Positions 714-18,533 of a DNA stretch of 18,533 nt are shown here, in pieces. Position numbers and translations under genes: made by a program. Source of the stretch: a virus (taxonomy: Duplodnaviria; Heunggongvirae; Uroviricota; Caudoviricetes). The DNA lies in the IMG/VR virus record IMGVR_UViG_2541047722_000018, positions 1 to 18,533 of that record; one strand, written 5' to 3'. Position 1 is the first letter of the stretch, and each line of letters opens with the position of its first letter. The notes below the pieces were generated by a model that saw nothing but the letters and a program-made list of their open reading frames with translations, made no database searches and was not told the DNA's origin.

Positions 714-716
714 CGC

Positions 717-998
717 ATGACAGCAGAAGAAAAAAGCGTCCTGTCGCTTTTCATGATTGGGGTGCTGATTGTTGTCGGCAAGGTGCTTGCCGGTGGTGAA
801 CCCATCACCCCGCGTCTGTTTATCGGGCGCATGTTGCTCGGTGGTTTTGTCTCGATGGTTGCCGGTGTTGTTCTGGTGCAGTTTCCTGACCTGTCACTGC
901 CTGCGGTGTGCGGCATCGGCTCCATGCTGGGTATCGCCGGTTATCAGGTGATTGAGATTGCCATTCAGCGCCGTTTTAAGGGCAGGGGGAAACCGTAA
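717..998 (+). CDS. Y: Holin (P2 gpY-like), 93 aa
   Basis: Small protein with hydrophobic transmembrane-like stretches (LFMIGVLIVVGKVLAGG; FVSMVAGVVLVQF), a charged C-terminus (RRFKGRGKP), immediately upstream of the endolysin. Confidence 0.8.
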   Translation: MTAEEKSVLSLFMIGVLIVVGKVLAGGEPITPRLFIGRMLLGGFVSMVAGVVLVQFPDLSLPAVCGIGSMLGIAGYQVIEIAIQRRFKGRGKP

Positions 999-1495: not shown

Positions 1496-1509
1496 ACGGA
1501 GTAAACACC

Positions 1510-2348: not shown

Positions 2349-2493
2349 CCCGCAGACGAACGGCGATTTAAGTGCCGATATCCGGCAGCTTGAGAACGCG
2401 CTGGCACGGTGTGCCAGCCAGATAAAAATGATTAAACACTGTCAGGACGAAAACGATGCTCAAACCCGACAGCCTGCGCAGGGCGCTGACTGA
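2203..2493 (+). CDS. lysC: Outer-membrane spanin LysC (Rz1-like lipoprotein), 96 aa
   Basis: ATG at 2203 inside the lysB 3' end in a different frame; signal peptide with lipobox (LMLCAG-C) and a proline-rich mature part; runs into the R start. Track ORF 2086..2493 over-extends upstream. Confidence 0.7.
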   Translation: MKTKIFAAGTVLTCLMLCAGCTSAPPALTPVIVPNACPKVSLCPMPGSDPQTNGDLSADIRQLENALARCASQIKMIKHCQDENDAQTRQPAQGAD

Positions 2494-2923
2494 TGCCGTC
2501 ACGGTGCTGAAAACTAACCCCGATATGCTGCGGATATTCGTGGATAACGGGAGTATTGCCTCCACACTGGCGACGTCGCTGTCATTCGAAAAGCGTTACA
2601 CGCTCAATGTCATTGTGACCGACTTTACCGGTGATTTTGACCTGCTCATCGTGCCGGTGCTGGCGTGGCTGCGGGAAAATCAGCCCGACATCATGACCAC
2701 CGACGAAGGCCAGAAAAAGGGCTTCACGTTTTATGCAGACATCAACAATGACAGCAGCTTTGATATCAGCATCAGTCTGATGCTGACCGAGCGCACGCTG
2801 GTCAGTGAGGTGGACGGCGCACTGCATGTGAAGAATATCCCGGAACCTCCGCCGCCGGAGCCGGTCACCCGCCCGGTGGAGTTGTATATCAATGGCGAAC
2901 TGGTGAGCAAGTGGGATGAATGA
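2456..2923 (+). CDS. R: Tail completion protein (P2 gpR-like), 155 aa
   Basis: Size and position as P2 R; overlaps the lysC end and the S start. Confidence 0.8.
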   Translation: MLKPDSLRRALTDAVTVLKTNPDMLRIFVDNGSIASTLATSLSFEKRYTLNVIVTDFTGDFDLLIVPVLAWLRENQPDIMTTDEGQKKGFTFYADINNDSSFDISISLMLTERTLVSEVDGALHVKNIPEPPPPEPVTRPVELYINGELVSKWDE

Positions 2924-3368
2924 GTTTAAGCGTTTTGAAGACCGGCTGACCGGGCTGATTGAATCGCTGTCACCGTCAGGGCGTCGGCGACTGAGTGCCG
3001 AACTGGCGAAACGTCTGCGTCAGAGTCAGCAACGTCGGGTGATGGCACAGAAAGCCCCGGACGGCACACCCTATGCGCCACGCCAGCAGCAGAGCGCCAG
3101 AAAAAAGACCGGTCGTGTTAAGCGAAAAATGTTTGCGAAACTTATCACCAGTCGCTTTTTGCATATCCGCGCCAGCCCGGAACAGGCATCAATGGAGTTT
3201 TACGGCGGAAAGTCACCGAAAATCGCCAGTGTGCATCAGTTCGGTCTGTCGGAAGAAACCCGGAAAGACGGTAAGAAAATTGATTATCCGGCGCGTCCTC
3301 TGCTCGGCTTTACCGGTGAGGATGTGCAGATGATTGAAGAGATTATCCTGGCTCACCTTGACCGTTAG
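2916..3368 (+). CDS. S: Tail completion protein (P2 gpS-like), 150 aa
   Basis: Size and position as P2 S; start ATG overlaps the R stop (ATGAATGA). Confidence 0.8.
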   Translation: MNEFKRFEDRLTGLIESLSPSGRRRLSAELAKRLRQSQQRRVMAQKAPDGTPYAPRQQQSARKKTGRVKRKMFAKLITSRFLHIRASPEQASMEFYGGKSPKIASVHQFGLSEETRKDGKKIDYPARPLLGFTGEDVQMIEEIILAHLDR

Positions 3369-3434
3369 TTGTGCCATTCCCGACACCTCATCGTCACATT
3401 GCCGCCGGTATGACCCGGCGGCATCCTTCCCGTT

Positions 3435-4070
3435 ATGAACACTCTCGCAAATATTCAGGAACTCGCGCGCGCACTGCGCAACATGATTCGCACCGGCGTT
3501 ATCGTCGAAACCGACCTTAACGCCGGTCGCTGCCGTGTGCAGACCGGCGGCATGTGCACCGACTGGCTTCAGTGGCTGACCCATCGCGCCGGGCGTTCGC
3601 GCACATGGTGGGCACCTTCCGTGGGGGAACAGGTGCTGATTCTGGCCGTGGGCGGTGAACTTGACACGGCGTTTGTTCTGCCGGGGATTTATTCCGGTGA
3701 TAACCCCGCGCCGTCTGCGTCGGCGGATGCCCTGCATATCCGTTTCCCTGACGGGGCGGTGATTGAGTATGAACCCGAAACCAGTGCACTCACGGTAAGC
3801 GGAATTAAAACGGCCAGCGTGACGGCTTCTGATTCTGTTACCGCCACGGTGCCGGTGGTCATGGTGAAAGCGTCAACCCGCGTCACCCTGGACACACCGG
3901 AGGTGGTCTGCACCAACAGGCTGATTACTGGCACGCTGGAAGTACAGAAGGGCGGGACGATGCGCGGCAACATTGAACACACCGGTGGTGAACTCTCATC
4001 AAACGGTAAGGTACTGCATACCCATAAACACCCCGGCGACAGCGGCGGCACAACCGGGGGACCTCTATGA
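3435..4070 (+). CDS. V: Baseplate spike/assembly protein (P2 gpV-like), 211 aa
   Basis: First gene after a 66-bp gap, consistent with the start of the V-W-J-I-H-G late operon; size matches P2 gpV. Confidence 0.85.
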   Translation: MNTLANIQELARALRNMIRTGVIVETDLNAGRCRVQTGGMCTDWLQWLTHRAGRSRTWWAPSVGEQVLILAVGGELDTAFVLPGIYSGDNPAPSASADALHIRFPDGAVIEYEPETSALTVSGIKTASVTASDSVTATVPVVMVKASTRVTLDTPEVVCTNRLITGTLEVQKGGTMRGNIEHTGGELSSNGKVLHTHKHPGDSGGTTGGPL

Positions 4071-4414
4071 CTGCGCGTTATCTCGGAATGAATCGCAGTG
4101 ATGGCCTGACTGTCACTGACCTTGAGCATATCAGCCAGAGTATCGGCGATATCCTGCGCACGCCGGTCGGCTCACGGGTGATGCGTCGTGATTACGGTTC
4201 GTTGCTGGCGTCAATGATTGACCAGCCGCAGACCCCGGCGCTTGAGTTGCAGATTAAGGTCGCCTGTTACATGGCGGTGCTGAAATGGGAACCCCGCGTC
4301 ACCCTGTCATCCGTCACCACGGCGCGCAGTTTTGACGGGCGAATGACGGTCACGTTAACCGGTCAGCACAACGACACCGGCCAGCCACTTTCGTTAACCA
4401 TCCCTGTGAGTTGA
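4067..4414 (+). CDS. W: Baseplate wedge protein (P2 gpW-like, T4 gp25 family), 115 aa
   Basis: Overlaps the V stop (ATGA); size and order as P2 W. Confidence 0.85.
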   Translation: MTARYLGMNRSDGLTVTDLEHISQSIGDILRTPVGSRVMRRDYGSLLASMIDQPQTPALELQIKVACYMAVLKWEPRVTLSSVTTARSFDGRMTVTLTGQHNDTGQPLSLTIPVS

Positions 4415-4418
4415 AACC

Positions 4419-5327
4419 ATGCCGATTATCGACCTGAACCAGCTACCCGCACCGGATGTGGTTGAGGAGCTGGACTTTGAAACCATTCTTGCCGAACGCA
4501 AGGCGACACTGATTTCCCTTTACCCGGAAGACCAGCAGGAGGCGGTCGCCCGTACCCTGACGCTGGAATCCGAGCCTCTCGTCAAACTGCTGGAGGAAAA
4601 TGCTTATCGTGAGCTTATCTGGCGTCAGCGTGTGAATGAGGCCGCACGGGCGGTAATGCTGGCCAGTGCCGCCGGTAATGACCTTGATGTGATTGGTGCC
4701 AATTACAATACCACGCGCCTGATTATCACCCCGGCAGATGATTCGACCATCCCGCCGACACCGGCAGTAATGGAATCTGACACTGATTATCGTCTGCGTA
4801 TTCAGCAGGCGTTTGAAGGTTTAAGCGTCGCCGGGTCGGTGGGTGCCTATCAGTATCATGGCCGCAGTGCCGACGGGCGTGTCGCGGATATCTCTGTCAC
4901 CAGTCCGTCTCCGGCCTGTGTCACCATCTCTGTGCTGTCACGTGAAAATAACGGTGTCGCATCCGAAGACCTGCTGGCCGTGGTGCGTAACGCCCTTAAT
5001 GGTGAGGACGTCAGGCCGGTGGCTGACCGTGTGACCGTGCAGTCTGCCGCCATTGTTGAATACCAGATAAACGCCACGCTTTACCTTTACCCTGGTCCCG
5101 AAAGCGAACCCATCCGCGCGGCCGCCGTGAAAAAGCTGGAAGCGTACATCACGGCACAGCACCGGCTGGGGCGCGACATCCGTCTGTCTGCCATTTATGC
5201 CGCTTTGCATGTGGAAGGCGTGCAGCGTGTCGAGCTGGCGGCACCACTGGCCGACATCGTGCTCAACAGTACGCAGGCGTCTTTCTGTACCGAATACCGC
5301 GTCGTGACCGGAGGCTCGGATGAGTGA
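4419..5327 (+). CDS. J: Baseplate protein (P2 gpJ-like), 302 aa
   Basis: Size and order as P2 J. Confidence 0.85.
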   Translation: MPIIDLNQLPAPDVVEELDFETILAERKATLISLYPEDQQEAVARTLTLESEPLVKLLEENAYRELIWRQRVNEAARAVMLASAAGNDLDVIGANYNTTRLIITPADDSTIPPTPAVMESDTDYRLRIQQAFEGLSVAGSVGAYQYHGRSADGRVADISVTSPSPACVTISVLSRENNGVASEDLLAVVRNALNGEDVRPVADRVTVQSAAIVEYQINATLYLYPGPESEPIRAAAVKKLEAYITAQHRLGRDIRLSAIYAALHVEGVQRVELAAPLADIVLNSTQASFCTEYRVVTGGSDE

Positions 5328-5850
5328 TTCGCGACTGCTGCCGACCGGCTCATCACCGCTTGAAGTCGCCGCTGCAAAAGCCTGTGCGGAAATTGAAAAA
5401 ACGCCGGTCAGTATTCGTGAGCTGTGGAACCTGGACACCTGCCCGGCAAATCTGCTGCCGTGGCTGGCGTGGGCGTTTTCGGTCGACAGATGGGATGAAA
5501 AGTGGCCGGAAGCGACCAAACGCGCCGTTATACGCGATGCCTATTTCATCCACTGTCATAAAGGCACTATAGGTGCAATCCGGCGTGTGGTGGAGCCGCT
5601 GGGCTATCTCATCAACGTGACGGAGTGGTGGGAAACCAGTGACCCGCCCGGCACCTTCCGGCTTGATATTGGTGTACTGGAAAGCGGTATCACAGAGGCA
5701 ATGTATCAGGAAATGGAACGGCTGATTGCTGATGCCAAACCTGCAAGCCGTCACCTTATTGGCCTGAACATTATCCAGGACATTCCCGGCTGTCTGTATA
5801 CAGGCGGTGTGGTCTGTGATGGTGATGTTATTACTGTTTATCCCGGATAA
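5320..5850 (+). CDS. I: Baseplate/tail protein (P2 gpI-like), 176 aa
   Basis: Overlaps the J end by 8 nt; size and order as P2 I. Confidence 0.8.
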   Translation: MSDSRLLPTGSSPLEVAAAKACAEIEKTPVSIRELWNLDTCPANLLPWLAWAFSVDRWDEKWPEATKRAVIRDAYFIHCHKGTIGAIRRVVEPLGYLINVTEWWETSDPPGTFRLDIGVLESGITEAMYQEMERLIADAKPASRHLIGLNIIQDIPGCLYTGGVVCDGDVITVYPG

Positions 5851-5860
5851 GTGAGAAACA

Positions 5861-8647
5861 ATGAGCACGAAATTTAAAACCGTTATCACTACTGCCGGAG
5901 CCGCAAAGCTGGCAGCCGCCACTGTCCCCGGCGGGAAAAAAGTAAACCTGTCTGCAATGGCCGTGGGTGACGGTAATGGCAAATTGCCGGTGCCGGATGC
6001 CGGTCAGACGAAACTGGTGCATGAGGTCTGGCGTCACGCTCTGAATAAAGTCAGCGTGGATAACAAGAATAAAAACTATATCGTGGCTGAACTGGTTGTA
6101 CCGCCAGAAGTGGGCGGCTTCTGGATGCGTGAACTTGGTCTGTATGACGATGCCGGAACACTGATTGCGGTATCCAACATGGCAGAAAGCTATAAGCCAG
6201 AACTGGCTGAAGGCTCCGGACGTGCGCAGACCTGCCGCATGGTTATTATTCTCAGCAACGTGGCGTCCGTTGAGCTGAGTATTGATGCCAGCACGGTGAT
6301 GGCGACGCAGGATTACGTCGATGACAAAATCGCAGAGCATGAGCAGTCCCGCCGCCATCCTGACGCCACGCTGACAGAAAAAGGTTTTACTCAGTTAAGC
6401 AGTGCAACAAACAGCACCAGTGAAAAGCTGGCAGCAACGCCAAAGGCAGTAAAAGCAGCCTATGACAATGCTGAAAAACGTATGCAGAAAGACCAGAACG
6501 GTGGCGATATTCCAGATAAGGGCGCTTTTCTGGACAATGTTGGCGTTACCAGCCTGACGTTTATGAAAAACAATGGCGAAATGCCGCTTGATGCTGATCT
6601 GAATACATTTGGTCCCGTTAAGGCTTATCTGGGGATCTGGTCTAAAGCTACCTCAACTAACGCAACACTGGAGAAAAATTTTCCGGAAGATAATGCTGTC
6701 GGTGTGCTTGAGGTTTTTGCTGCCGGCAATTTTGCAGGTACGCAACGCTTCACCACGAGAGACGGCAATGTATACATACGCAGACTCGCCAATAAGTGGA
6801 ATGGCTCTGATGGTCCGTGGGGCATATGGCGTCACACTCAATCAGCTACCCGCCCTTTGAGTACGACTATAGACCTGAATACGCTTGGAGCCGCCGAACA
6901 TCTTGGTTTATGGCGTAACAGTAGCTCGGCTATAGCTTCATATGAACGCAATTATCCAGAGGAAGGCGGCTTTGCTCAGGGGATGCTTGAGATCCTCGAA
7001 GGCGGGAATTATGGAAGAACGCAACGTTATACCACTCGCCGTGGAAATATGTATGTCCGCTGCCTTGCGGCAAGCTGGGATGTATCAAATCCGCAGTGGG
7101 AACCGTGGTTAAGAGTCGGTCATCAGTCAGAGAGTCGTTATTACGAAGGTGATTTAAATGTTCTAACCGACCCCGGTATTTACAGTGTTACAGGAAAGGC
7201 AACAAACGGTCCGATGCTGGACACCGTTGGCGCGACACTACTTGGGATACTGGAAGTAATCAGACGTTTTGATGGTGTGTCTGTCTGGCAGCGTTACACA
7301 ACCACAGGGAAATCAGAAACCACACAGGGACGCACTTTTGAGCGCGTCTACGCCGGGAGCAAATGGACCGAATGGCGAGAAGTATATAACTCCTTTTCGT
7401 TGCCTCTGAATCTGGGCATCGGTGGCGCAGTGGCAAAACTATCCAGTCTGGACTGGCAGACCTACGATTTTGTGCCGGGCAGTCTGATAACCGTGCGGCT
7501 TGATAACATGACCAACATTCCCGACGGTATGGACTGGGGCGTCATTGATGGCAACCTGATAAACATCGCAGTTGGTCCGAGTGATGATTCCGGTACGGGA
7601 CGCTCAATGCATGTATGGCGAAGCACTGTAAGTAAAGCCAACTACCGCTTTTTTATGGTGCGCGTTTCAGGAAATCCGGGAAGCCGCACGATTACAACAA
7701 GACGAGTACCAATCATTGACGAAGCCCAGACATGGGGCGCGAAACAGACATTCAGTGCTGGCCTTTCTGGTGAACTGTTCGGCAATGCTGCGACAGCAAC
7801 AAAGCTGAAAACAGCCCGTAAAATTAATAACGTTTCGTTTGATGGAACATCAGATATTAACCTGACGCCTGAAGATATTGGTGCATTGCCAATAACGGGA
7901 GGAACTCTTACCGGCGGTTTAACTGCTGCTGGCGAGATTATTTCCAAATCGGCGAATGGTCTTCGTATTGCCTATGGCAACTATGGATTCTTTATCCGAA
8001 ACGATGGTTCAAGCACATACCTCATGTTGACCAATTCGGGCGACAGCCTGGGAACATGGAATAGTTTAAGGCCGCTTACCATTAATAACGCCAGTGGAGC
8101 TGTTTCTATCGGTAATAGTTTAACTGTTAATGGTGATATAGGAACCAATGCTTGGGTATATGCAAATCGTTTTGCAATTAATAGCAGTACCGGAATGTGG
8201 ATAAATATGCGTGACCAGAATGTTATTTTTGGACGTAATGCGGTATCCACCGATGGTGCTCAGGCATTGTTACGTCAGGACCATGCTGATCGCAAATTTA
8301 TGATTGGTGGTCTGGGGAATAAGCAATTTGGCATCTACATGATTAATAATTCAAGGACAGCCAATGGCACCGATGGTCAGGCGTACATGGATAATAACGG
8401 GAATTGGCTTTGCGGTGCGCAAGTTATTCCCGGCAATTATGGTAATTTTGACTCACGCTATGTGAGAGATGTCAGACTTGGCACACGTGTTGTTCAGACC
8501 ATGCAAAAAGGCGTGATGTATGAAAAATCAGGTCATGTAATCACGGGGCTTGGTATTGTCGGTGAAGTCGATGGTGATGACCCCGCAGTATTCAGACCAA
8601 TACAAAAATACATCAATGGCACATGGTATAACGTCGCACAGGTGTAA
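5861..8647 (+). CDS. H: Tail fibre protein (P2 gpH-like N-terminus, divergent repeat-containing distal region), 928 aa
   Basis: N-terminus MSTKFKTVITTAGAAKLAAA... is the conserved P2-type fibre anchor. It is longer than the 669 aa I recall for P2 H. It has three tandem ~92-aa repeats, a GGTLTGGL motif common in enterobacterial phage fibres, and a visibly more AT-rich distal part. Confidence 0.85.
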   Translation: MSTKFKTVITTAGAAKLAAATVPGGKKVNLSAMAVGDGNGKLPVPDAGQTKLVHEVWRHALNKVSVDNKNKNYIVAELVVPPEVGGFWMRELGLYDDAGTLIAVSNMAESYKPELAEGSGRAQTCRMVIILSNVASVELSIDASTVMATQDYVDDKIAEHEQSRRHPDATLTEKGFTQLSSATNSTSEKLAATPKAVKAAYDNAEKRMQKDQNGGDIPDKGAFLDNVGVTSLTFMKNNGEMPLDADLNTFGPVKAYLGIWSKATSTNATLEKNFPEDNAVGVLEVFAAGNFAGTQRFTTRDGNVYIRRLANKWNGSDGPWGIWRHTQSATRPLSTTIDLNTLGAAEHLGLWRNSSSAIASYERNYPEEGGFAQGMLEILEGGNYGRTQRYTTRRGNMYVRCLAASWDVSNPQWEPWLRVGHQSESRYYEGDLNVLTDPGIYSVTGKATNGPMLDTVGATLLGILEVIRRFDGVSVWQRYTTTGKSETTQGRTFERVYAGSKWTEWREVYNSFSLPLNLGIGGAVAKLSSLDWQTYDFVPGSLITVRLDNMTNIPDGMDWGVIDGNLINIAVGPSDDSGTGRSMHVWRSTVSKANYRFFMVRVSGNPGSRTITTRRVPIIDEAQTWGAKQTFSAGLSGELFGNAATATKLKTARKINNVSFDGTSDINLTPEDIGALPITGGTLTGGLTAAGEIISKSANGLRIAYGNYGFFIRNDGSSTYLMLTNSGDSLGTWNSLRPLTINNASGAVSIGNSLTVNGDIGTNAWVYANRFAINSSTGMWINMRDQNVIFGRNAVSTDGAQALLRQDHADRKFMIGGLGNKQFGIYMINNSRTANGTDGQAYMDNNGNWLCGAQVIPGNYGNFDSRYVRDVRLGTRVVQTMQKGVMYEKSGHVITGLGIVGEVDGDDPAVFRPIQKYINGTWYNVAQV
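6599..7385 (+). repeat. Three tandem ~92-aa (276-279 nt) protein-level repeats inside tail fibre H
   Basis: Repeat units start at 6599, 6875 and 7154, each beginning with an LNT/LNV motif and sharing an ...L(E)VxxxGN(F/Y)xxTQR(F/Y)TTRxGNxYxRxLAxxW... core. Confidence 0.6.
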
Positions 8648-8650
8648 TTT

Positions 8651-9178
8651 ATGCAGCATTTAAAAAATATTACTGCGGGTAATCCAAAAACTGTTGCCCA
8701 ATATCAACTGACAAAAAATTTTGATGTTATCTGGTTATGGTCCGAAGAGGGAAAAAACTGGTATGAGGAAGTAAGTAATTTTCAGGAAGACACGATAAAG
8801 ATTGTTTACGACGAGAATAATATAATTGTCGGCATCACCAGAGATGCTTCAACGCTCAACCCTGAAGGTTTTAGCGTTGTCGAGGTTCCTGATATTACCG
8901 CCAACCGACGTGCTGATGACTCAGGTAAATGGATGTTTAAGGATGGTGCCGTGATTAAGCGGATTTATACGGCAGACGAACAGCAACAACAGGCAGAATC
9001 ACAAAAGGCCGCGTTACTTTCCGAAACCGAATCCGTGATTTTGCCGCTGGAGCGCGCTGTCAGGCTGAATATGGCAACAGATGAGGAGCGCAGTCGACTG
9101 GAAGCATGGGAACGCTACAGCGTTCTGGTCAGTCGTGTGGATCCTGCAAATCCTGAATGGCCGGAAATGCCGCAATAA
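8651..9178 (+). CDS. G: Tail fibre assembly protein / chaperone (P2 gpG, Tfa family), 175 aa
   Basis: Directly after H; size as P2 G; AT-rich like the distal part of H; ends ...[12 protein letters not shown]. Confidence 0.8.
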
Positions 9179-9331
9179 GTTGTATGAGCTCTGGTGGGAG
9201 CTTACATATCTATGGCACAGAGTAAAGCCTAATCTGACAGTCCGCTCTGTGCTAGGAGCGGACATTGTTGCCATCTATCTGCATAAATCTGTGGGGAGCT
9301 GCTCACTTGTGGGGAATGAGTCCTCAACTGT

Positions 9332-9360
9332 TTGCGTTTATAAACACAATCCTTTAGATT
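9332..9360 (+). promoter_or_regulatory. Candidate sigma70 promoter for the cargo ORF
   Basis: TTGCGT (9332-9337), 17-nt spacer, TAGATT (9355-9360), about 30 nt upstream of the cargo start; each hexamer matches consensus at 4/6 only. Confidence 0.3.
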
Positions 9361-9390
9361 CTCTCCTACTATCTACTAAAATTTTATCTA

Positions 9391-10518
9391 GTGAAAATGC
9401 CCAATAATCATATGTATGCAAGTCTACTGTCTTACAAAAACTTAAAGATGGCACATCAAGGAAGTAACTTACGGTCTATTACTGAGTTTTCTCTCTATTC
9501 AGATAGTCAACCAATTGGGGCGGTTGATGATGATTCAGTTTATTGTTTTCTGAATATGTTACCCAGGATAACCAAACAATCCACCGTTGCATCTTCAATT
9601 ACAGTGCGCACAAAGTGGTATAGTGACTTAAATAATATGATTCTTTCTAGTTCTCAGAGTCATACAAAGGATTATCATGGTGGATGGTATAATGATGAAA
9701 TAGCTGCGCTTTCAAGTTTACTGCTTGGTGTCCGTTTTCATGCTGGGTCAATTACTCGTCACTATGATTACTACACAGGTGATTTCGGAAGGATCCAAGC
9801 GGAGAGTTCTTTTCCTCCCGTTTTAGAGTTTAAACATAACAAACCTATAGTTCCTAATGCTATCAAAGAAATTGATATAACTAACCTTAAAGAGCTTAAC
9901 AATTTACATCTCTTAAGTGAAAAGAATTTCAACCATTTAATTAGAGCAGCCAGAAGCTATCAAAATGCATTATGGATATGCGAGTCATCTCCAAATATGA
10001 GTTGGCTATTGATGGTGTCAGCCCTAGAATGTGCGGCTAATCAATGGGCAAAATCCAATGCGTCTAAAGAAGAAAGATTTAAACATGCCAAGCCTGAATT
10101 ATATGAAAAATTAGATACCAATGAATTTAGACATTTAATCTCTATTATTGCTAATGAGTTTAAAGATTCATTTGGGGCGACAAAGAAGTTTGTGGATTTC
10201 TGCCTGTATTTCCTTCCAGATGAACCTCAAGTGAGGCCAAAAGTAGGAAGAATTGATTGGGGAAAAGAATCGCTATCAACAACTTTTAAAAAAATATATA
10301 ACTACCGTTCTAAGGCATTGCATGGAGGACAACCATTTCCTGAGCCGATGTGTTCCTATCCTGAAGTATGGGATGGGTATATTGCTGAACGAGCGAGAGC
10401 ATGTTCAACCTTAGGTGGAACGTGGTTGAATGAAGATGTGCCAATTAATTTAAATACATTCAACTTTATGACCCATTCCATTTTGAATAAGTGGTGGCAA
10501 TCTTTATTACCAAGTTAA
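9391..10518 (+). CDS. Hypothetical protein, cargo gene at the G/FI variable locus; candidate anti-phage defence protein (possible C-terminal HEPN-like R-x4-H motif), up to 375 aa
   Basis: Single long ORF in an AT-rich island: hand count 20/60 G+C at its 5' end versus 33/60 at the start of FI. Start uncertain (GTG 9391, ATG 9397 or downstream ATGs; no strong SD). No transmembrane segments or P-loop seen. Occupies the P2 Z/fun position. Confidence 0.6.
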   Translation: MKMPNNHMYASLLSYKNLKMAHQGSNLRSITEFSLYSDSQPIGAVDDDSVYCFLNMLPRITKQSTVASSITVRTKWYSDLNNMILSSSQSHTKDYHGGWYNDEIAALSSLLLGVRFHAGSITRHYDYYTGDFGRIQAESSFPPVLEFKHNKPIVPNAIKEIDITNLKELNNLHLLSEKNFNHLIRAARSYQNALWICESSPNMSWLLMVSALECAANQWAKSNASKEERFKHAKPELYEKLDTNEFRHLISIIANEFKDSFGATKKFVDFCLYFLPDEPQVRPKVGRIDWGKESLSTTFKKIYNYRSKALHGGQPFPEPMCSYPEVWDGYIAERARACSTLGGTWLNEDVPINLNTFNFMTHSILNKWWQSLLPS

Positions 10519-10540
10519 CACTGTAAGTATCAGTGTTAAC
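10514..10540. repeat. Perfect 10-bp inverted repeat overlapping the cargo stop codon
   Basis: GTTAACACTG (10514-10523), 7-nt spacer, CAGTGTTAAC (10531-10540). Confidence 0.6.
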
Positions 10541-10609
10541 TGCACCATGTAATTTTATATCTGTACCAGACTGGAGGAAAATGTTCGCTTATCGCTCATT
10601 AGGGTCAAC

Positions 10610-10648
10610 CATACTCAAATCTCTCACATTGCAGGAGATTTGAGTATG
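10610..10648. repeat. Perfect 14-bp inverted repeat with 11-nt spacer
   Basis: CATACTCAAATCTC (10610-10623), spacer tcacattgcag, GAGATTTGAGTATG (10635-10648). Confidence 0.6.
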
Positions 10649-10671
10649 AACACGTCACCGTGGAAGGACTG

Positions 10672-10694
10672 GCGGGCGAATTGCCCGCTTTTTT
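10672..10694 (+). terminator. Rho-independent terminator downstream of the cargo ORF
   Basis: GCGGGC-gaatt-GCCCGC stem-loop followed by TTTTTT on the + strand. Confidence 0.6.
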
Positions 10695-10792
10695 GTATCT
10701 GTTGTTTCATCCACTGACCAGCCAGGTCAAATAGCGTCTCATGCTCTGCACAACAGAAAATAGTTGCACCCATTAACCACGGAGTTAAACGG

Positions 10793-11983
10793 ATGAGTGA
10801 CTATCATCACGGCGTGCAGGTGCTGGAGATTAACGACGGCACCCGCGTCATTTCCACCGTATCCACCGCCATTGTTGGCATGGTCTGCACGGCCAGCGAT
10901 GCGGATGCGGAAACCTTCCCCGTCAATAAACCGGTGCTGATCACCAATGTGCAGAGCGCGATTGCAAAGGCCGGTAAAAAAGGTACGCTGGCGGCATCGT
11001 TGCAGGCCATCGCTGACCAGTCAAAACCGGTCACCGTTGTCGTGCGCGTGGAAGACGGCACCGGCGACGACGAAGAAACGAAACTCGCGCAGACCGTTTC
11101 CAATATCATCGGCACCACTGACGAAAACGGTCAGTACACCGGACTGAAAGCCCTGATGGGCGCAGAGTCGGTTACCGGCGTTAAACCGCGCATTCTCGGC
11201 GTACCGGGACTGGACACCAAAGAGGTGGCGGTTGCACTGGCATCGGTATGCCAGGAACTGAATGCCTTCGGGTATATCAGCGCATGGGGCTGTAAAACCA
11301 TTTCCGAGGCAAAAGCCTACCGTCAGAATTTCAGTCAGCGTGAGCTGATGGTCATCTGGCCGGATTTCCTTGCATGGGATACGGTCACCAGTACCACCGC
11401 CACCGCGTATGCCACCGCCCGTGCGCTGGGGCTGCGTGCCAAAATCGACCAGGAGCAGGGCTGGCATAAAACGCTGTCCAACGTCGGGGTAAACGGTGTT
11501 ACCGGCATCAGCGCATCTGTATTCTGGGATTTGCAGAAGTCTGGCACTGATGCTGACCTGCTGAACGAGGCAGGCGTCACAACGCTGGTTCGCCGCGACG
11601 GTTTCCGTTTCTGGGGTAACCGTACCTGCTCCGATGACCCACTTTTCCTCTTTGAAAGCTACACACGTACCGCGCAGGTACTGGCCGACACGATGGCTGA
11701 GGCGCACATGTGGGCTATTGATAAGCCCATCACCGCAACGCTGATTCGCGACATCATTGATGGCATCAATGCCAAATTCCGCGAACTGAAAAACAACGGT
11801 TATATCGTGGATGGCACATGCTGGTTCAGTGAAGAAGCCAACGATGCGGAAACCCTCAAGGCCGGAAAACTGTATATCGACTACGACTATACACCGGTGC
11901 CTCCTCTCGAAAACCTGACCCTGCGCCAGCGTATTACTTCAAGATACCTGGCAAGTCTGGTCACCTCGGTTAACAGCAATTAA
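10793..11983 (+). CDS. FI: Contractile tail sheath protein (P2 gpFI-like), 396 aa
   Basis: GGAG RBS before the ATG; size and order as P2 FI; first gene of the FI-FII-E-T-U-D operon. Confidence 0.9.
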   Translation: MSDYHHGVQVLEINDGTRVISTVSTAIVGMVCTASDADAETFPVNKPVLITNVQSAIAKAGKKGTLAASLQAIADQSKPVTVVVRVEDGTGDDEETKLAQTVSNIIGTTDENGQYTGLKALMGAESVTGVKPRILGVPGLDTKEVAVALASVCQELNAFGYISAWGCKTISEAKAYRQNFSQRELMVIWPDFLAWDTVTSTTATAYATARALGLRAKIDQEQGWHKTLSNVGVNGVTGISASVFWDLQKSGTDADLLNEAGVTTLVRRDGFRFWGNRTCSDDPLFLFESYTRTAQVLADTMAEAHMWAIDKPITATLIRDIIDGINAKFRELKNNGYIVDGTCWFSEEANDAETLKAGKLYIDYDYTPVPPLENLTLRQRITSRYLASLVTSVNSN

Positions 11984-11995
11984 GGAGCCTGACCG

Positions 11996-12514
11996 ATGGC
12001 AATGCCGCGCAAACTCAAGTTAATGAACGTCTTTCTGAACGGCTACAGCTATCAGGGCGTTGCAAAGTCCGTCACGCTGCCAAAACTGACCCGTAAGCTC
12101 GAAAACTATCGCGGTGCGGGGATGAACGGCAGCGCACCGGTAGACCTCGGCCTTGATGACGATGCGCTGTCAATGGAGTGGTCGCTCGGTGGCTTCCCGG
12201 ATTCGGTTATCTGGGAGCTTTACGCCGCAACCGGTGTGGATGCCGTGCCGATTCGTTTTGCAGGCTCTTACCAGCGCGACGATACCGGCGAAACGGTGGC
12301 CGTCGAAGTGGTCATGCGTGGACGTCAGAAAGAAATCGACACCGGCGAGGGTAAACAGGGAGAAGACACCGAGTCGAAAATCTCCGTGGTCTGCACCTAT
12401 TTCCGGCTGACGATGGACGGTAAGGAGCTGGTCGAAATCGACACCATCAACATGATTGAGAAGGTGAACGGCGTCGACCGGCTGGAGCAACACCGCCGCA
12501 ATATCGGCCTGTGA
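11996..12514 (+). CDS. FII: Tail tube protein (P2 gpFII-like), 172 aa
   Basis: AGGAG RBS; size and order as P2 FII. Confidence 0.9.
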   Translation: MAMPRKLKLMNVFLNGYSYQGVAKSVTLPKLTRKLENYRGAGMNGSAPVDLGLDDDALSMEWSLGGFPDSVIWELYAATGVDAVPIRFAGSYQRDDTGETVAVEVVMRGRQKEIDTGEGKQGEDTESKISVVCTYFRLTMDGKELVEIDTINMIEKVNGVDRLEQHRRNIGL

Positions 12515-12570
12515 TTTTCATCCGGTCAGCCTGGCTGACCGGTTAACCCCGATTCAGAAGTGAGAAAACC

Positions 12571-12846
12571 ATGAACAAAGAAAATGTGATTACCCTGGAC
12601 AATCCGGTCAAGCGTGGTGAGCAGGTTATCGAACAGGTCACGCTGATGAAACCCAATGCCGGGACGCTGCGCGGTGTCAGTCTGGCTGCGGTCGCAAACT
12701 CCGAAGTCGATGCACTGATTAAGGTGCTGCCGCGCATGACGGCACCGATGCTGACCGAGCAGGAGGTCGCCGCGCTGGAACTGCCTGACCTTGTGGCGCT
12801 GGCCGGTAAGGTGGTCGGTTTTTTGTCTCCGAACTCGGTGCAGTGA
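12571..12846 (+). CDS. E: Tail assembly chaperone E (P2 gpE-like), 91 aa
   Basis: Size and position as P2 E; contains the slippery site T-TTT-TTG near its 3' end. Confidence 0.8.
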   Translation: MNKENVITLDNPVKRGEQVIEQVTLMKPNAGTLRGVSLAAVANSEVDALIKVLPRMTAPMLTEQEVAALELPDLVALAGKVVGFLSPNSVQ

Positions 12847-12998
12847 CGTTTCCGAAAAATCTGTCGGTCGATGACCTGATGGCAGATGTGGCAGTGATAT
12901 TTCACTGGCCGCCATCAGAACTGTATCCCATGAGCCTGACCGAACTCATCACATGGCGCGAAAAGGCGCTCCGGCGAAGCGGAAACACGAATGAGTAA
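12571..12998 (+). CDS. E+E': Tail assembly chaperone fusion E+E' made by a programmed -1 translational frameshift
   Basis: Slippery heptamer T TTT TTG at 12819-12825; after a -1 slip the frame stays open (..VSELGAVTFPKNL...RRSGNTNE) to TAA at 12996-12998, overlapping the T start codon. Analogous to the P2 E/E' and lambda G/GT arrangement. Confidence 0.65.
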
Positions 12999-15438
12999 CA
13001 ATGTAAAATTACAGGTATTGCTCAGGGCTGTTGACCAGGCATCCCGCCCGTTTAAATCCATCCGCACAGCGAGTAAGTCGCTGTCGGGGGATATCCGGGA
13101 AACACAAAAATCACTGCGCGAGCTGAACGGTCACGCATCCCGTATTGAGGGATTCCGCAAGACCAGTGCACAGCTCGCCGTGACTGGTCATGCACTTGAA
13201 AAGGCACGGCAGGAAGCCGAAGCCCTTGCCACACAGTTTAAAAACACCGAACGTCCGACCCGTGCTCAGGCGAAAGTGCTGGAATCCGCAAAGCGTGCGG
13301 CGGAGGACTTACAGGCGAAATATAACCACCTGACGGATTCCGTTAAACGCCAGCAACGGGAACTGGCCGTTGTGGGAATTAATACCCGCAATCTTGCACA
13401 TGATGAGCAGGGACTGAAAAACCGTATCAGTGAAACCACCGCACAACTTAACCGTCAGCGTGACGCGCTGGCGCGTGTCAGTACGCAACAGGCAAAACTT
13501 AACGCAGTAAAACAGCGTTATCAGGCCGGAAAGGAACTGGCCGGAAATATGGCCTCGGTAGGCGCTGCCGGTGTGGGGATTGCGGCGGCGGGAACGATGG
13601 CCGGAGTTAAGCTGCTGATGCCCGGTTATGAGTTTGCGCAGAAAAACTCAGAATTGCAGGCCGTGCTAGGAGTGGCAAAAGACTCCGCCGAAATGGCCGC
13701 GCTACGCAAACAGGCGCGCCAGCTCGGCGACAACACAGCCGCCTCGGCGGATGATGCAGCAGCAGCTCAAATCATCGTGGCTAAATCAGGAGCGGATAAA
13801 AATGGCATCTTGGCACAAACACCGGCCATTTTGAATATGTCACTGGCAAACAAGAAAACGATGGAGGAAAACGCCACTTTACTTATTGGGACAAAATCGG
13901 CATTCGGGCTTGCTGATGATAAGGCTTCCCATATTGCTGATGTTATTTCAATGACGATGAATAAATCGCAAGCCACATTCGAGGGACTAAGTGATTCACT
14001 TACCTATGTCGGGCCAGTGGCAAAAGATGCAGGTGTCAGCTTGGAAGAAACAGCAGCAATGTTAGGTGCATTACACGATGCAAATATCAGTGGGTCTATG
14101 GCTGGCACAGGAAGTCGAGCAGTACTGAGTCGTTTGCAGGCACCAACCGGGAAAGCGTATGACGCTATTAAAGAGCTTGGCGTAAAGACAACTGACAGCA
14201 AAGGTAATACGCGACCTGTCTTTTCAATTCTGAAAGAAATTCAGCGGAGTTTTGAAAAAAATAAACTAGGAACAGGGCAGCGCGCTGAATACATGAAAAC
14301 AATATTCGGCGAAGAGGCCAGCTCATCAGCAAGTGTATTAATGACAGCAGCAGCCAGCGGCAAGCTGGATAATCTGACCAGGTTGATTAAAGAATCTGAC
14401 GGTAAAACAGAAGAACTGGTTAAGGTTATGCAGGACAACCTCGGCGGTGACTTTAAGGAGTTTCAGTCCGCTTATGAGGCGGTGGGGACTGACCTGTTTG
14501 ACCAGCAGGAAGGCGCACTGCGTAAGCTCACGCAGACGGCCACAAATTATGTGTTAAAACTCGACGGCTGGATCCAGAAAAACAAATCACTGGCGTCAAC
14601 CATCGGCATCATTGCCGGTGGCGCGCTGGCGCTGACTGGCATCATCGGTGCCATTGGTCTTGTCGCCTGGCCGGTTATCACCGGCATCAATGCCATCATC
14701 GCGGCAGCAGGCGCAATGGGGGCAATCTTCACGACGGTTGGCAGTGCCGTTATGACGGCCATCGGGGCGATTAGCTGGCCGGTTGTGGCCGTGGTGGCCG
14801 CCATTGTCGCCGGGGCGTTGCTTATCCGTAAATACTGGGAGCCTGTCAGCGCATTCTTTGGCGGTGTGGTTGAAGGGCTTAAAGCGGCATTTGCGCCGGT
14901 GGGGGAACTGTTCACGCCACTTAAACCGGTTTTTGACTGGCTGGGGGAAAAGTTACAGGCCGCGTGGCAGTGGTTTAAAAATCTGATTGCCCCGGTCAAA
15001 GCCACCCAGGACACCCTGAACCGTTGCCGTGACACGGGGGTCATGTTCGGGCAGGCACTGGCTGACGCGCTGATGCTGCCGCTTAATGCGTTCAACAAAC
15101 TGCGCAGCGGCATTGACTGGGTACTGGAAAAACTCGGTGTTATCAACAAAGAGTCAGACACACTTGACCAGACCGCCGCCAGAACTCAAGCCGCCACGTA
15201 TGGCAGCGGTGGTTATATTCCGGCGACCAGCTCTTATGCAGGCTATCAGGCTTATCAGCCGGTCACGGCACCGGCTGGCCGCTCTTATGTAGACCAGAGT
15301 AAAAACGAATATCACATCAGCCTGACGGGTGGTACTGCGCCGGGGACACAGCTTGACCGCCAGTTACAGGATGCGCTCGAAAAATACGAGCGGGATAAAC
15401 GTGCGCGCGCCCGTGCCAGCATGATGCATGACGGTTAA
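12991..15438 (+). CDS. T: Tail tape measure protein (P2 gpT-like), 815 aa
   Basis: Large alpha-helical protein with a central Gly/Ala-rich hydrophobic segment; size and order as P2 T. Confidence 0.85.
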   Translation: MSNNVKLQVLLRAVDQASRPFKSIRTASKSLSGDIRETQKSLRELNGHASRIEGFRKTSAQLAVTGHALEKARQEAEALATQFKNTERPTRAQAKVLESAKRAAEDLQAKYNHLTDSVKRQQRELAVVGINTRNLAHDEQGLKNRISETTAQLNRQRDALARVSTQQAKLNAVKQRYQAGKELAGNMASVGAAGVGIAAAGTMAGVKLLMPGYEFAQKNSELQAVLGVAKDSAEMAALRKQARQLGDNTAASADDAAAAQIIVAKSGADKNGILAQTPAILNMSLANKKTMEENATLLIGTKSAFGLADDKASHIADVISMTMNKSQATFEGLSDSLTYVGPVAKDAGVSLEETAAMLGALHDANISGSMAGTGSRAVLSRLQAPTGKAYDAIKELGVKTTDSKGNTRPVFSILKEIQRSFEKNKLGTGQRAEYMKTIFGEEASSSASVLMTAAASGKLDNLTRLIKESDGKTEELVKVMQDNLGGDFKEFQSAYEAVGTDLFDQQEGALRKLTQTATNYVLKLDGWIQKNKSLASTIGIIAGGALALTGIIGAIGLVAWPVITGINAIIAAAGAMGAIFTTVGSAVMTAIGAISWPVVAVVAAIVAGALLIRKYWEPVSAFFGGVVEGLKAAFAPVGELFTPLKPVFDWLGEKLQAAWQWFKNLIAPVKATQDTLNRCRDTGVMFGQALADALMLPLNAFNKLRSGIDWVLEKLGVINKESDTLDQTAARTQAATYGSGGYIPATSSYAGYQAYQPVTAPAGRSYVDQSKNEYHISLTGGTAPGTQLDRQLQDALEKYERDKRARARASMMHDG

Positions 15439-15452
15439 GGAGGTGACGAAAA

Positions 15453-15932
15453 ATGATGCTCGCGTTAGGTATGTTTGTTTTTATGCGCCAGACGCTGCCA
15501 CACCAGACCATGCAGCGTGAATCAGATTATCGCTGGCCGTCAAATTCCCGTATCGGCAAACGGGATGCCTTTCAATTTCTCGGTGTGGGTGAGGAAAACA
15601 TCACGCTTGCCGGTGTGCTTTATCCCGAACTGACCGGCGGAAAGCTGACGATGACCACGCTCAGGCTGATGGCAGAGGAAGGCCGGGCGTGGCCGTTGCT
15701 GGATGGCACCGGCATGATTTATGGCATGTATGTCATCAGTAAGGTGAGTGAAACAGGGAGTATTTTCTTTGCAGACGGCACACCCCGGAAAATTGATTTT
15801 ACGCTGTCGCTCACCCGCGTTGATGAATCACTGGCCGCGCTTTATGGCGATATCGGTAAACAGGCGGAATCGCTCATCGGTAAGGCTGGCAGTATAGCGA
15901 CTAAATTCACGGGTATGACGGAGGCGGGATAA
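15453..15932 (+). CDS. U: Tail protein (P2 gpU-like), 159 aa
   Basis: AGGAGG RBS; size and order as P2 U. Confidence 0.85.
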   Translation: MMLALGMFVFMRQTLPHQTMQRESDYRWPSNSRIGKRDAFQFLGVGEENITLAGVLYPELTGGKLTMTTLRLMAEEGRAWPLLDGTGMIYGMYVISKVSETGSIFFADGTPRKIDFTLSLTRVDESLAALYGDIGKQAESLIGKAGSIATKFTGMTEAG

Positions 15933-17095
15933 TGCTGGATGCGCTGACATTTGATGCAGGCAGTACGCTGACGCCGGATTACATGCTGATGCTCGACAGC
16001 AGGGATATTACCGGCAATATCAGCGACCGTCTGATGAGCATGACCCTGACGGATAACCGGGGCTTTGAGGCTGACCAGCTTGATATTGAACTGAACGATG
16101 CCGACGGGCAGGTCGGACTGCCGGTTCGTGGCGCTGTCCTGACGGTGTATATCGGCTGGAAAGGTTTTGCCCTGGTATGCAAAGGGAAATTTACCGTTGA
16201 TGAGGTTGAACACCGGGGCGCACCGGATGTGGTCACCATCCGCGCCCGGAGTGCAGATTTTCGCGGGACGCTCAATTCCCGCCGTGAAGGCTCCTGGCAT
16301 GACACCACGCTCGGTGCGATTGTTGAGGCGATAGCCTCCCGTAACAGGCTGGAAGCCAGTGTCGCGCCGTCACTGGCAGGAATTAAAATCCCGCACATCG
16401 ACCAGTCGCAGGAGTCTGATGCGAAATTCCTGACCCGTCTTGCAGAACGCAACGGCGGTGAGGTGTCGGTAAAAATGGGAAAACTGTTGTTTCTCAAAGC
16501 GGGGCAGGGGGTGACGTCCAGCGGTAAAAAAATCCCGCAGATTACCATCACCCGCAGCGACGGCGACCGTCATCATTTTGCGATTGCTGACCGTGGAGCC
16601 TATACCGGCGTAACGGCAAAGTGGTTACACACCAAAGACCCGAAGCCGCAAAAGCAGAAGGTAAAACTGAAACGCAAAAAGAAAGAGAAACACCTGCGCG
16701 CACTGGAGCACCCGAAAGCGAAACCAGTCACGCAGAAGAAAGCGCCAAAAGTACCGGAAGCGCGCGAAGGTGAATACATGGCCGGTGAGGTTGATAACGT
16801 TTTTGCCCTGACCACGGTATATGCCACGAAAGCACAGGCCATGCGTGCCGCTCAGGCGAAGTGGGATAAGCTGCAACGGGGTGTAGCGGAGTTCTCCATC
16901 AGCCTGGCTACTGGTCGGGCAGATATTTACACGGAAACACCGGTTAAAGTGTCAGGCTTTAAGCGCGTCATAGACGAGCAGGACTGGACAATCACTAAGG
17001 TGACACATTTTCTGAATAATAGCGGCTTCACGACGTCCTTAGAGCTTGAGGTCAGGCTTTCTGATGTGGAGCACGAAACAGAAGATGATGAGTGA
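15932..17095 (+). CDS. D: Tail protein (P2 gpD-like), 387 aa
   Basis: Start overlaps the U stop (TAATG); size and order as P2 D; contains a Lys-rich low-complexity linker. Confidence 0.85.
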   Translation: MLDALTFDAGSTLTPDYMLMLDSRDITGNISDRLMSMTLTDNRGFEADQLDIELNDADGQVGLPVRGAVLTVYIGWKGFALVCKGKFTVDEVEHRGAPDVVTIRARSADFRGTLNSRREGSWHDTTLGAIVEAIASRNRLEASVAPSLAGIKIPHIDQSQESDAKFLTRLAERNGGEVSVKMGKLLFLKAGQGVTSSGKKIPQITITRSDGDRHHFAIADRGAYTGVTAKWLHTKDPKPQKQKVKLKRKKKEKHLRALEHPKAKPVTQKKAPKVPEAREGEYMAGEVDNVFALTTVYATKAQAMRAAQAKWDKLQRGVAEFSISLATGRADIYTETPVKVSGFKRVIDEQDWTITKVTHFLNNSGFTTSLELEVRLSDVEHETEDDE

Positions 17096-17176
17096 TGTAA
17101 TTTATTTATCTGTTTGTTTTATAAGGATAAATTAACTAAAATGGCACCATCAACAAAACCGGAAGAGGTGCTCGCG

Positions 17177-17395
17177 ATGTTTCATTGTCCTTTATGCCAG
17201 CATGCCGCACATGCGCGTACAAGCCGCTATATCACTGACACGACAAAAGAGCGTTATCACCAGTGTCAGAACGTGAATTGCAGCGCCACATTCATCACTT
17301 ATGAGTCGGTACAGCGATACATCGTGAAGCCGGGAGAAGTCCACGCCGTAAGACCGCACCCGTTGCCGTCAGGGCAGCAAATTATGTGGATGTGA
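17177..17395 (+). CDS. ogr: Late-gene transcriptional activator Ogr (zinc-finger, 72 aa)
   Basis: MFHCPLCQHAAHARTSRYITDTTKERYHQCQNVNCSATF... matches my recollection of P2 Ogr, with a C-x2-C...C-x4-C zinc-binding pattern. ATG at 17177 has an AGAGG RBS; the track ORF from 17114 is an over-extension. Confidence 0.9.
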   Translation: MFHCPLCQHAAHARTSRYITDTTKERYHQCQNVNCSATFITYESVQRYIVKPGEVHAVRPHPLPSGQQIMWM

Positions 17396-17405
17396 TCACA
17401 AAAAT

Positions 17406-17430
17406 AGCCCCTCAGTCGAGGGGCTTATTT
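17406..17430. terminator. Stem-loop terminator after ogr (possibly bidirectional)
   Basis: AGCCCCTC-agtc-GAGGGGCT with T-rich tracts on both sides. Confidence 0.55.
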
Positions 17431-17521
17431 ATGGTCGATGTGGACGCTATGTGGACAGTGGTTGACATAAATCCATTTATATCATCAGGTTAGGTGCTTT
17501 TTTGTGACACCATCCCTGTCT
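17431..17521. other. Probable attR region of the prophage (integrase arm-type direct repeats plus core); exact core not determinable from this window
   Basis: Lies between the last phage gene (ogr) and host sequence. ATGTGGAC occurs twice (17438-17445 and 17449-17456) with 11-bp periodicity. Confidence 0.35.
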
Positions 17522-17548
17522 TCCCCCACATGATGTGGGGGTTTTTTT
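17522..17548 (+). terminator. Rho-independent terminator, probably the host cpxP (CpxQ 3'-UTR sRNA) terminator
   Basis: CCCCCAC-atgat-GTGGGGG followed by eight T; located just upstream of fieF, where cpxP sits in E. coli. Confidence 0.6.
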
Positions 17549-17630
17549 TATCCTCAATTTGCCTGCTGCTTAATGCATTGCAGATGATTTGCTTCCGTTA
17601 TACTACCGTCAGTTGATAGCGGGAGTATTT

Positions 17631-18533
17631 ATGAATCAATCTTATGGACGGCTGGTCAGTCGGGCGGCGATTGCTGCGACGGCGATGGCTTCGCTGCTAT
17701 TGCTGATTAAAATTTTTGCATGGTGGTATACCGGGTCGGTGAGTATTCTCGCCGCGCTGGTGGATTCGCTGGTGGATATCGGCGCGTCGTTGACGAATTT
17801 ACTGGTGGTGCGATATTCCCTGCAACCTGCCGACGATAATCACTCGTTTGGTCACGGTAAAGCTGAGTCCCTCGCGGCGCTGGCGCAAAGTATGTTTATC
17901 TCCGGTTCGGCACTATTCCTGTTTTTGACGGGTATTCAACATCTGGTATCTCCAACACCGATGACAGATCCAGGCGTCGGGGTTATCGTGACAATTGTGG
18001 CGCTAATTTGTACGATTATCCTTGTCTCGTTTCAGCGTTGGGTGGTGCGCCGGACGCAAAGCCAGGCGGTGCGGGCTGATATGCTACATTACCAGTCTGA
18101 TGTTATGATGAACGGCGCAATTCTGCTGGCGCTGGGGTTGTCCTGGTACGGCTGGCATCGCGCCGATGCTCTGTTTGCATTGGGGATCGGCATCTATATT
18201 TTATATAGCGCGTTACGCATGGGATATGAGGCGGTACAGTCATTACTGGATCGCGCATTGCCTGATGAGGAACGGCAAGAAATTATTGATATCGTGACTT
18301 CCTGGCCGGGTGTTAGCGGCGCTCACGATCTTCGCACGCGGCAGTCAGGGCCGACCCGCTTTATTCAGATTCATTTGGAAATGGAAGACTCTCTGCCTTT
18401 GGTTCAGGCACATATGGTGGCGGATCAGGTAGAGCAGGCTATTTTACGGCGTTTTCCGGGATCGGATGTGATTATCCATCAGGACCCCTGTTCCGTCGTA
18501 CCCAGGGAGGGTAAACGGTCTATGCTTTCATAA
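17631..18533 (+). CDS. fieF: Cation-diffusion-facilitator family ferrous-iron/zinc efflux transporter FieF (YiiP)
   Basis: [54 protein letters not shown]... matches my recollection of E. coli FieF; GGGAG RBS before the ATG at 17631; the track start at 17589 is an over-extension; the window ends at the stop codon. Confidence 0.9.

Follow-up and report, generated by a model that had tools for sequence, protein, structure and literature searches.

A predicted intrinsic terminator of the P2-like backbone lies between a cargo gene and the tail-sheath promoter

The window analysed here, an 18,533-nucleotide stretch of viral DNA (IMG/VR record IMGVR_UViG_2541047722_000018, positions 1 to 18,533), is the late region of a P2-like phage (Peduovirus) and is 100% identical to Yersinia phage vB_YpM_22 (MT374855) around the site studied here. 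Its + strand carries, in order, lysis genes, R, S, V, W, J, I, H, G, a cargo gene, FI, FII, E/E', T, U, D, and ogr. The gap between G and FI is the Z/fun hotspot, the second defence-enriched locus of P2-like prophages (PMC9519451; PMC13586616), and the hotspot literature we found, including those two papers, does not mention a terminator. In the window, a GC-rich hairpin followed by a run of T lies in this gap, between the cargo gene and FI. Is this hairpin a transcription terminator, does it belong to the cargo or to the phage, and from which promoter is the tail-sheath operon beyond it transcribed? The features that frame these questions are as follows.

8651 to 9178, + strand: gene G, tail-fibre assembly, the last backbone gene of V-W-J-I-H-G (Pfam Caudo_TAP, E = 1.2e-34; homology to P2 gpG)
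9397 to 10518, + strand: cargo ORF of 373 aa, A+T-rich, a hypothetical protein in MT374855
10671 to 10689, + strand: predicted terminator stem-loop, GGCGGGC-GAATT-GCCCGCT (hairpin scan, fold energy, compensatory changes in homologues)
10689 to 10699, + strand: T-rich tail of the predicted terminator, TTTTTTGTATC (sequence, consensus scan)
10793 to 11983, + strand: FI, the tail sheath gene and first gene of the F operon, with its Shine-Dalgarno (SD) sequence GGAG at 10781-10784 (sequence, homology)

Anatomy of the hairpin upstream of FI

The + strand sequence at 10671-10694, GGCGGGCGAATTGCCCGCTTTTTT, has the canonical form of an intrinsic (Rho-independent) terminator. A stem of seven pairs, six of them G-C and the closing one G-U, encloses the five-nucleotide loop GAATT and is followed by a T6 run, with the T-rich tail, TTTTTTGTAT, beginning at the last stem position. 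The element is intergenic, 153 nt 3' of the cargo stop (10518) and 98 nt 5' of the FI ATG (10793), and is co-oriented with the cargo gene and FI, all three being on the + strand. The original prediction had described a GC stem with six T, oriented for + strand transcripts and about 100 nt from FI, and each of these points was confirmed, the T run ending 98 nt before the ATG. The element is also unidirectional, as its upstream flank, GGAAGGACT, yields no T run on the opposite strand.

A consensus pattern scan placed 10671-10694 at the top of the + strand terminator-like sites of the window, and a ViennaRNA-based scan gave its hairpin an energy of -13.2 kcal/mol. Five + strand sites in the window combine a T-rich tail with an energy of -13 kcal/mol or better, where 30 shuffles of the window that preserve dinucleotides average 0.57 such sites, and only three of the five are compact intergenic hairpins with a clean T run (10671-10694, and 17405-17426 and 17522-17542 after ogr). 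Taken in a 41-nt context, the hairpin stands out only moderately from shuffled sequence (z = -2.46), and 5 of 200 shuffles fold equally well. Because fold energy alone is moderate, the case rests on the combination of hairpin and T run, on position, and on conservation. We conclude that 10671-10694 is, by sequence, a bona fide intrinsic terminator. A search of 9000-11000 against Rfam at E values up to 1 returned no match.

The hairpin scan found no other + strand terminator of -10 kcal/mol or better between G and 10671, so transcripts from PV, the late promoter of the V-G operon, and from the cargo meet no earlier canonical stop. Transcription from PV probably continues through G and the cargo as far as the terminator at 10671.

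Several other sites in the window have related features. The two hairpins after ogr (AGCCCCTC…GAGGGGCT at 17405-17426, -16.2 kcal/mol, scoring as a terminator on both strands; CCCCCACATGATGTGGGGG plus T8 at 17522-17542, scoring on the + strand) mark the end of the late region, and a + strand ORF begins beyond them at 17589. A terminator-like match at 12798-12826, consisting of a stem and TTTTTTG, lies inside gene E at a T6G slippery run. We rejected it as a terminator because it coincides with the slippery run of the overlap between ORF E (12571-12846) and the -1 frame ORF E' (12843-12998), which we take to be the programmed frameshift site known from E/E' of P2. At the S-V boundary (3366-3435), the S stop codon TAG (3366-68) adjoins the activator half-site TGT of PV (3370-72), and the hairpin scan found no terminator between S and V. 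Transcripts of the upstream late operon can therefore enter V, unlike the situation at the G-FI boundary.

The promoter of FI

If transcription ends at the hairpin, FI would need a late promoter of its own in the remaining ~100 bp. The P2 record (AF063097) places the activator site of pF at 17555-17583, its start at 17626-17628, and the FI ATG at 17652; that is, the activator site spans -97 to -69 and the start -26 to -24 relative to the ATG. We transferred these annotations to the window, allowing a 1-nt indel, and obtained the following elements of a putative promoter, PF, together with the gene for its activator.

~10697 to 10725, + strand: putative Ogr (activator) binding region of PF, transferred from the P2 annotation
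10756 to 10761, + strand: putative -10 element of PF, GAAAAT, with no -35 element, read from the sequence
10767 to 10769, + strand: predicted PF transcription start, by homology to P2
17177 to 17395, + strand: ogr, the late-gene activator acting at PF (NCBIfam PRK09678 equivalog, E = 1.1e-52, the match covering residues 22-93 of ORF 17114-17395)

The core of the window PF is TGT-N12-CCA at 10703-10720, TGTTTCATCCACTGACCA, centred ~56 nt 5' of the transferred start (~10768), as against an expected ~55 nt. GAAAAT lies 7 nt upstream of that start, and the stretch from the -10 element to the ATG has the same length in the window and in P2. The same half-sites are found in P2 (TGT-GCTGTCGATTAG-CCA), at the B site of phage 186 (TGT-GCCAGACATCAT-CCA), and in the window (TGT-TTCATCCACTGA-CCA). 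Among 177 unique FI upstream regions, the right half-site is CCA in 149 and ACA in 4, and TGT is invariant in an unanchored MAFFT alignment of 50 sequences (A1). PF reportedly requires just ~69 nt of upstream DNA, a figure on which none of our conclusions depends.

The window PF resembles that of P2 in having TGT-N12-CCA at an equal distance from the FI ATG, to within 1 nt, in having an identical SD sequence and leader, and in being accompanied by ogr. It differs from P2 in its spacer and -10 region, where it carries the other common allele (ATCTGTTGTTTCATCCACTGACCAGCC...), as do Wphi, L-413C, and most E. coli P2-like prophages. Judged by its sequence, it is an ordinary allele, the one common to Wphi and most of these prophages.

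The consensus quoted in the literature for such sites is TGT-N12-ACA (PMC3931495). Across the window this strict pattern has two matches (9329-9346 and 17450-17467) where 5 are expected, with none at PV or PF, and the relaxed pattern TGT-N12-MCA has 15 matches against 21.8 expected, which is no enrichment. The TGT-N12 pattern is thus uninformative alone, and the PF site was identified only by position and homology. The original prediction had held that FI must have its own late promoter in the remaining ~100 bp, and the putative activator-type PF at 10697-10769, with ogr present, supports it. It had also noted that no strict TGT-N12-ACA lies upstream of FI, which our scan bore out, and had supposed that the promoter might deviate from that of P2, which it does not: P2 pF, 186 pJ, and 149 of the 177 regions all have TGT-N12-CCA. 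The failure of a strict-motif search is expected because P2's own PF has CCA rather than ACA. The strict motif misses the FI promoter even in P2 and 186, a point that matters for late-promoter scans of P2-like genomes.

The hairpin at other P2-like loci

The closest known arrangement is that of phage 186, whose record (U32222) has the tail-fibre assembly CDS ending at 14054, the terminator t45 at 14058-14081, a B-protein site at 14091-14110, the pJ start at 14159, and the sheath gene J at 14183. The order is the same as in the window, that is, terminator, TGT-N12-CCA, start site, and sheath gene. Like the window hairpin, t45 follows the tail-fibre assembly gene, here directly, and precedes the activator (B protein) site of the sheath promoter by ~10 nt, and the two terminators are similar in sequence (186, GGCGGCATTTGCCCGCTTCTTTCT; window, GGCGGGCGAATTGCCCGCTTTTTTGT). 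Unlike the window, 186 has no cargo, its terminator beginning 4 nt after the stop codon where the window has 1.4 kb of cargo, and its stem is imperfect and weaker (-6.8 vs -13.2 kcal/mol). A terminator of this kind is therefore already known, being curated in 186 and left unannotated in most other records.

We sampled 80 FI loci from one genome per species and 120 from viral contigs. In 33 loci the G stop and the FI ATG are at most 170 nt apart, and 28 of these have a layout of 122-136 nt: the G stop, 0-15 nt, a GC hairpin, a T run, TGTTGT…CCAAC, a -10 element, GGAG, and the ATG. Two of the cargo-less loci (L135 and L137) have a PF sequence type identical to the window's. Of the 33 short-gap loci, 27 had a terminator call at the canonical position, as did 58 of 65 cargo-bearing loci, whose gaps range from 837 to 3,578 nt and hold more than 30 distinct cargo arrangements. 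Across many genera of Enterobacterales, the interval from -150 to -80 of FI holds a + strand terminator of -10 kcal/mol or better in 113 of 172 unique loci, whereas FI coding controls gave 0-1 of 172; the roughly one-third with no call at this threshold include hairpins with a poor T run and loci with different upstream DNA.

Because the cargo-less relatives and 186 show the same layout, we read the terminator as a backbone element of the V-G operon. The explanation we favour, and hold to be very probably correct, is that it is an intrinsic terminator ending the P2 tail-fibre late operon of PV (V-W-J-I-H-G), that it belongs to the backbone, and that the cargo uses it as a resident terminator. 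Counting against this explanation, the P2 record assigns a "putative rho-independent terminator for V operon" elsewhere, at 15639-15666 (AF063097). The job proposed for it is the same, to end the V-G operon, but it is a non-homologous hairpin within the cargo module of P2 itself, where it directly adjoins the 3' end of the antisense gene fun(Z), and it is absent from the window.

The stems fall into several families (GGCGGGC/GCCCGCC, ACGGGC/GCCCGT, GCCCTCC/GGAGGGC, CGCCCC/GGGGCG, and GCCCACC/GGTGGGC), and from these sequences it is the structure, rather than the sequence of the stem, that is kept between lineages. RNAalifold returned no consensus structure for the 50-sequence MAFFT alignment, in which non-homologous stem families had been split into gapped columns, and covariation was measured instead by explicit pair counting on the aligned main families. 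In A1, 88% of cells are paired, against 36-58% in slid controls, a percentage inflated by the pre-selection of these sequences for a terminator call. Compensatory changes on both sides occur in 7 of 8 stem pairs (28 cells), a count that the pre-selection does not affect, and 0 of 500 shuffles reach the observed values.

The predicted strength of the hairpin varies. Most E. coli relatives have stems stronger than the window's, at ~-18 kcal/mol. The canonical hairpin copy of P2 (L002, AF063097, 4020-4050) differs from the window's at two positions of its 5' arm (GGTGAGC as against GGCGGGC) and is a weak hairpin (-11.3 kcal/mol, z = -0.9), as is t45 of 186. Weak members of the family may leak. 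P2 also suggested that the hairpin decays when the cargo is antisense and has its own terminator, an idea we rejected: among 61 cargo arrangements there was no link to the strand of the last cargo ORF, with mean hairpin energies of -14.3 kcal/mol (+) and -14.2 kcal/mol (-) and three missing calls in each group.

The weak P2 and 186 versions raise the question of whether the window hairpin is a deliberately leaky terminator or attenuator, with substantial PV and cargo read-through feeding the F operon while 3' ends are stabilised or the ratio of fibre to sheath message is tuned. Graded termination is found in this phage group, 186 having an annotated partial terminator (tI) within its sheath operon, and read-through between late operons would be tolerated at the terminator-free S-V boundary of the window. 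However, the six G-C pairs and uninterrupted T6 of the window hairpin are traits of efficient terminators, the stems of most E. coli relatives are stronger still, and the known Ogr requirement of PF would matter little if read-through fed the F operon. We consider a leaky design unlikely and favour an efficient terminator.

The palindrome could instead act as DNA, either as a landmark for cargo exchange or as a protein-binding or UP-like element aiding PF. In favour of this, at least three independent left junctions fall within ~6 nt of the stem (in the window, in locus L100, and at the G stop of cargo-less loci), and the T run is 8 nt from the Ogr half-site. Yet most cargo-bearing loci (55 of those sampled) share, whichever cargo they carry, a further right flank 5' of the hairpin that is conserved over at least 25 nt (~60 nt in P2 and Wphi), so cargo exchange does not normally occur at the hairpin itself. 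The stems are wholly different between genera yet paired, as would suit an RNA structure but not a site that a protein recognises by its sequence. The spacing from stem to TGT ranges from ~5 to 25 nt across loci, which speaks against a promoter role of fixed geometry and marks the terminator and the promoter as separate modules, and the + strand T run always follows the hairpin. A role at the DNA level is thus very improbable, and we retain the reading as an RNA terminator.

Cargo, junction, and hotspot

Whether the terminator came with the cargo depends on where the inserted DNA ends, for which three further features are needed.

9179 to 9265, + strand: left flank of the Z/fun hotspot, ~90 nt, common to cargo-bearing P2-like prophages
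10592 to 10665, + strand: right end of the cargo, an integrase upstream region and the first ~19-20 nt of the gene (~95% identity, several E. coli genomes listed)
10666 to 10670, + strand: start of backbone homology (four-way alignment; blastn breakpoint)

In a four-way alignment of the integrase locus, Wphi, P2, and the window, the window tracks the 5' end of an E. coli integrase gene through A10665 and the P2 backbone from G10666, placing the cargo/backbone junction at 10665|10666, 5 nt 5' of the stem. When 10480-10830 was compared with phage genomes by blastn, 8 records were identical end to end; more than 30 further records among the matches listed (Wphi, L-413C, and Peduovirus isolates) align, at 95-97% identity, only from query position 186, which is window position 10665. 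The two sides of the junction also differ in how widely they occur. Of 5,426 complete E. coli genomes, 957 contain 10666-10792 at nearly full length, and 5 contain the whole of the cargo segment 9180-10670. The hairpin thus lies outside the inserted segment and does not travel with the cargo, as the terminator of a moron would. As far as sequence can tell, it is an ordinary backbone terminator between the P2-like tail-fibre and tail-sheath operons and is not cargo-borne. The original prediction, a dedicated terminator isolating the cargo, therefore stands in part: there is a real terminator between the cargo and FI, but it is not dedicated, given the upstream junction and the counts of 957 vs 5 genomes. 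Morons frequently bring their own terminators, and 10671-10694 is the first canonical terminator 3' of the cargo ORF, but that it arrived with the cargo in a moron cassette of promoter, gene, and terminator is barely credible in view of the junction, the genome counts, its presence beside more than 30 distinct cargo arrangements and, in phages without cargo, immediately after G, and the 5' fragment of an integrase gene that separates it from the cargo ORF.

The backbone terminator suggests the following course of events. In the ancestral layout, the terminator would have stood between the G stop and the Ogr site of PF, a few nucleotides from either, and insertion of the 1.4-kb cargo (about 9265-10665) between G and the terminator would have left the cargo to use the resident terminator. 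Polymerase that started at PV during the lytic cycle, at a promoter of the cargo in lysogeny, or at what remains of the integrase promoter would transcribe the GC stem, pause on the U tract, and be released at ~10690-10697, just 5' of the Ogr site (10703-20), -10 element (10756-61), and start (~10768) of PF. The F operon (FI-FII-E-E'-T-U-D) would then be expressed only through Ogr-activated PF. We infer termination in vivo, and its efficiency, from the features described above. The likely benefit would be insulation, with no tail-gene expression in lysogens and no polymerase crossing the Ogr site.

For this phage, the result locates where the tail-fibre operon ends and the tail-sheath operon begins, and it carries little weight beyond annotation. 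It also indicates that hotspot cargo goes in upstream of a resident terminator without bringing its own, which is useful for designing Z/fun insertions.

The window cargo agrees with the hotspot in its position between G and FI, where P2 has fun(Z), and in its left flank, which is shared with cargo-bearing phages. This flank resembles P2 downstream of G and is absent from cargo-less loci, and of the 1,383 E. coli genomes with a match anywhere in the query 9180-10670, many match its positions 1-84/91. The flank contains a 9-bp stem (GTCCGCTCT / AGGAGCGGAC region), with -21 kcal/mol for 9200-9265. In most relatives a conserved right flank, …GAGTGAGTACAAATCAGGAC, frames the hotspot together with the left one. 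Unlike the usual hotspot, the window has lost this right flank, which is replaced by the integrase 5' fragment joined 5 nt from the terminator.

The integrase remnant consists of 54 nt of upstream DNA and the start of the gene, with its ATG at 10647 and its ORF truncated at 10665|10666. Its source is a gene of ~200 aa for a "site-specific integrase" found in several E. coli genomes among the matches listed. The remnant includes a 14-bp perfect inverted repeat, 10610-10623 / 10636-10649 (CATACTCAAATCTC / GAGATTTGAGTATG; -20.6 kcal/mol, z = -4.6), which pairs the last two bases of the SD sequence (AGGAG, 10633-37), covers the truncated integrase ATG, and is also kept at the E. coli integrase locus L203. 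Its form suggests an operator or a hairpin that occludes translation. The integrase fragment suggests that illegitimate recombination brought the cargo in from an island flanked by an integrase gene. A more speculative idea, which we regard as quite improbable, is that the composite of terminator and PF forms a hard right-hand limit for cargo capture and perhaps a preferred landing point, the cargo having been captured recently from its island 5 nt from the stem and the hairpin favouring such junctions, for instance by pausing replication or transcription.

The cargo region has a GC content of 0.32-0.42 (~0.35 in the ORF), compared with ~0.55 in the backbone. The cargo protein has no match in Pfam, PADLOC, PHROGs, or NCBIfam and, in contrast to the defence cargo of the hotspot, matches no known defence family; the ORF may be an accessory or defence gene of a kind yet to be characterised. 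A single, weak promoter-like match lies near it, TTTAGA-18-TAAAAT at 9353-9382. The strict TGT-N12-ACA match at 9329-9346 (TGTTTGCGTTTATAAACA), whose outer bases form a perfect palindrome, lies ~50 nt 5' of the cargo ATG; it is a candidate Ogr-responsive promoter for the cargo and probably a coincidence, 5 matches being expected by chance. Over the cargo stop, 10513-10541 holds an 11-bp inverted repeat, GTTAACACTG…CAGTGTTAAC (-14.3 kcal/mol, z = -3.9), with no proper T run, which could be the cargo's own 3' stabiliser or a weak terminator.

Upstream of the hotspot, the tail-fibre gene H (5861-8647) encodes 928 aa, compared with 669 aa in P2, and the C-terminal part of its product contains a trimerisation domain like that of T4 gp34 (PF21446). 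Because it is larger than P2 H and carries this domain C-terminally, we regard H as a mosaic receptor-binding fibre.
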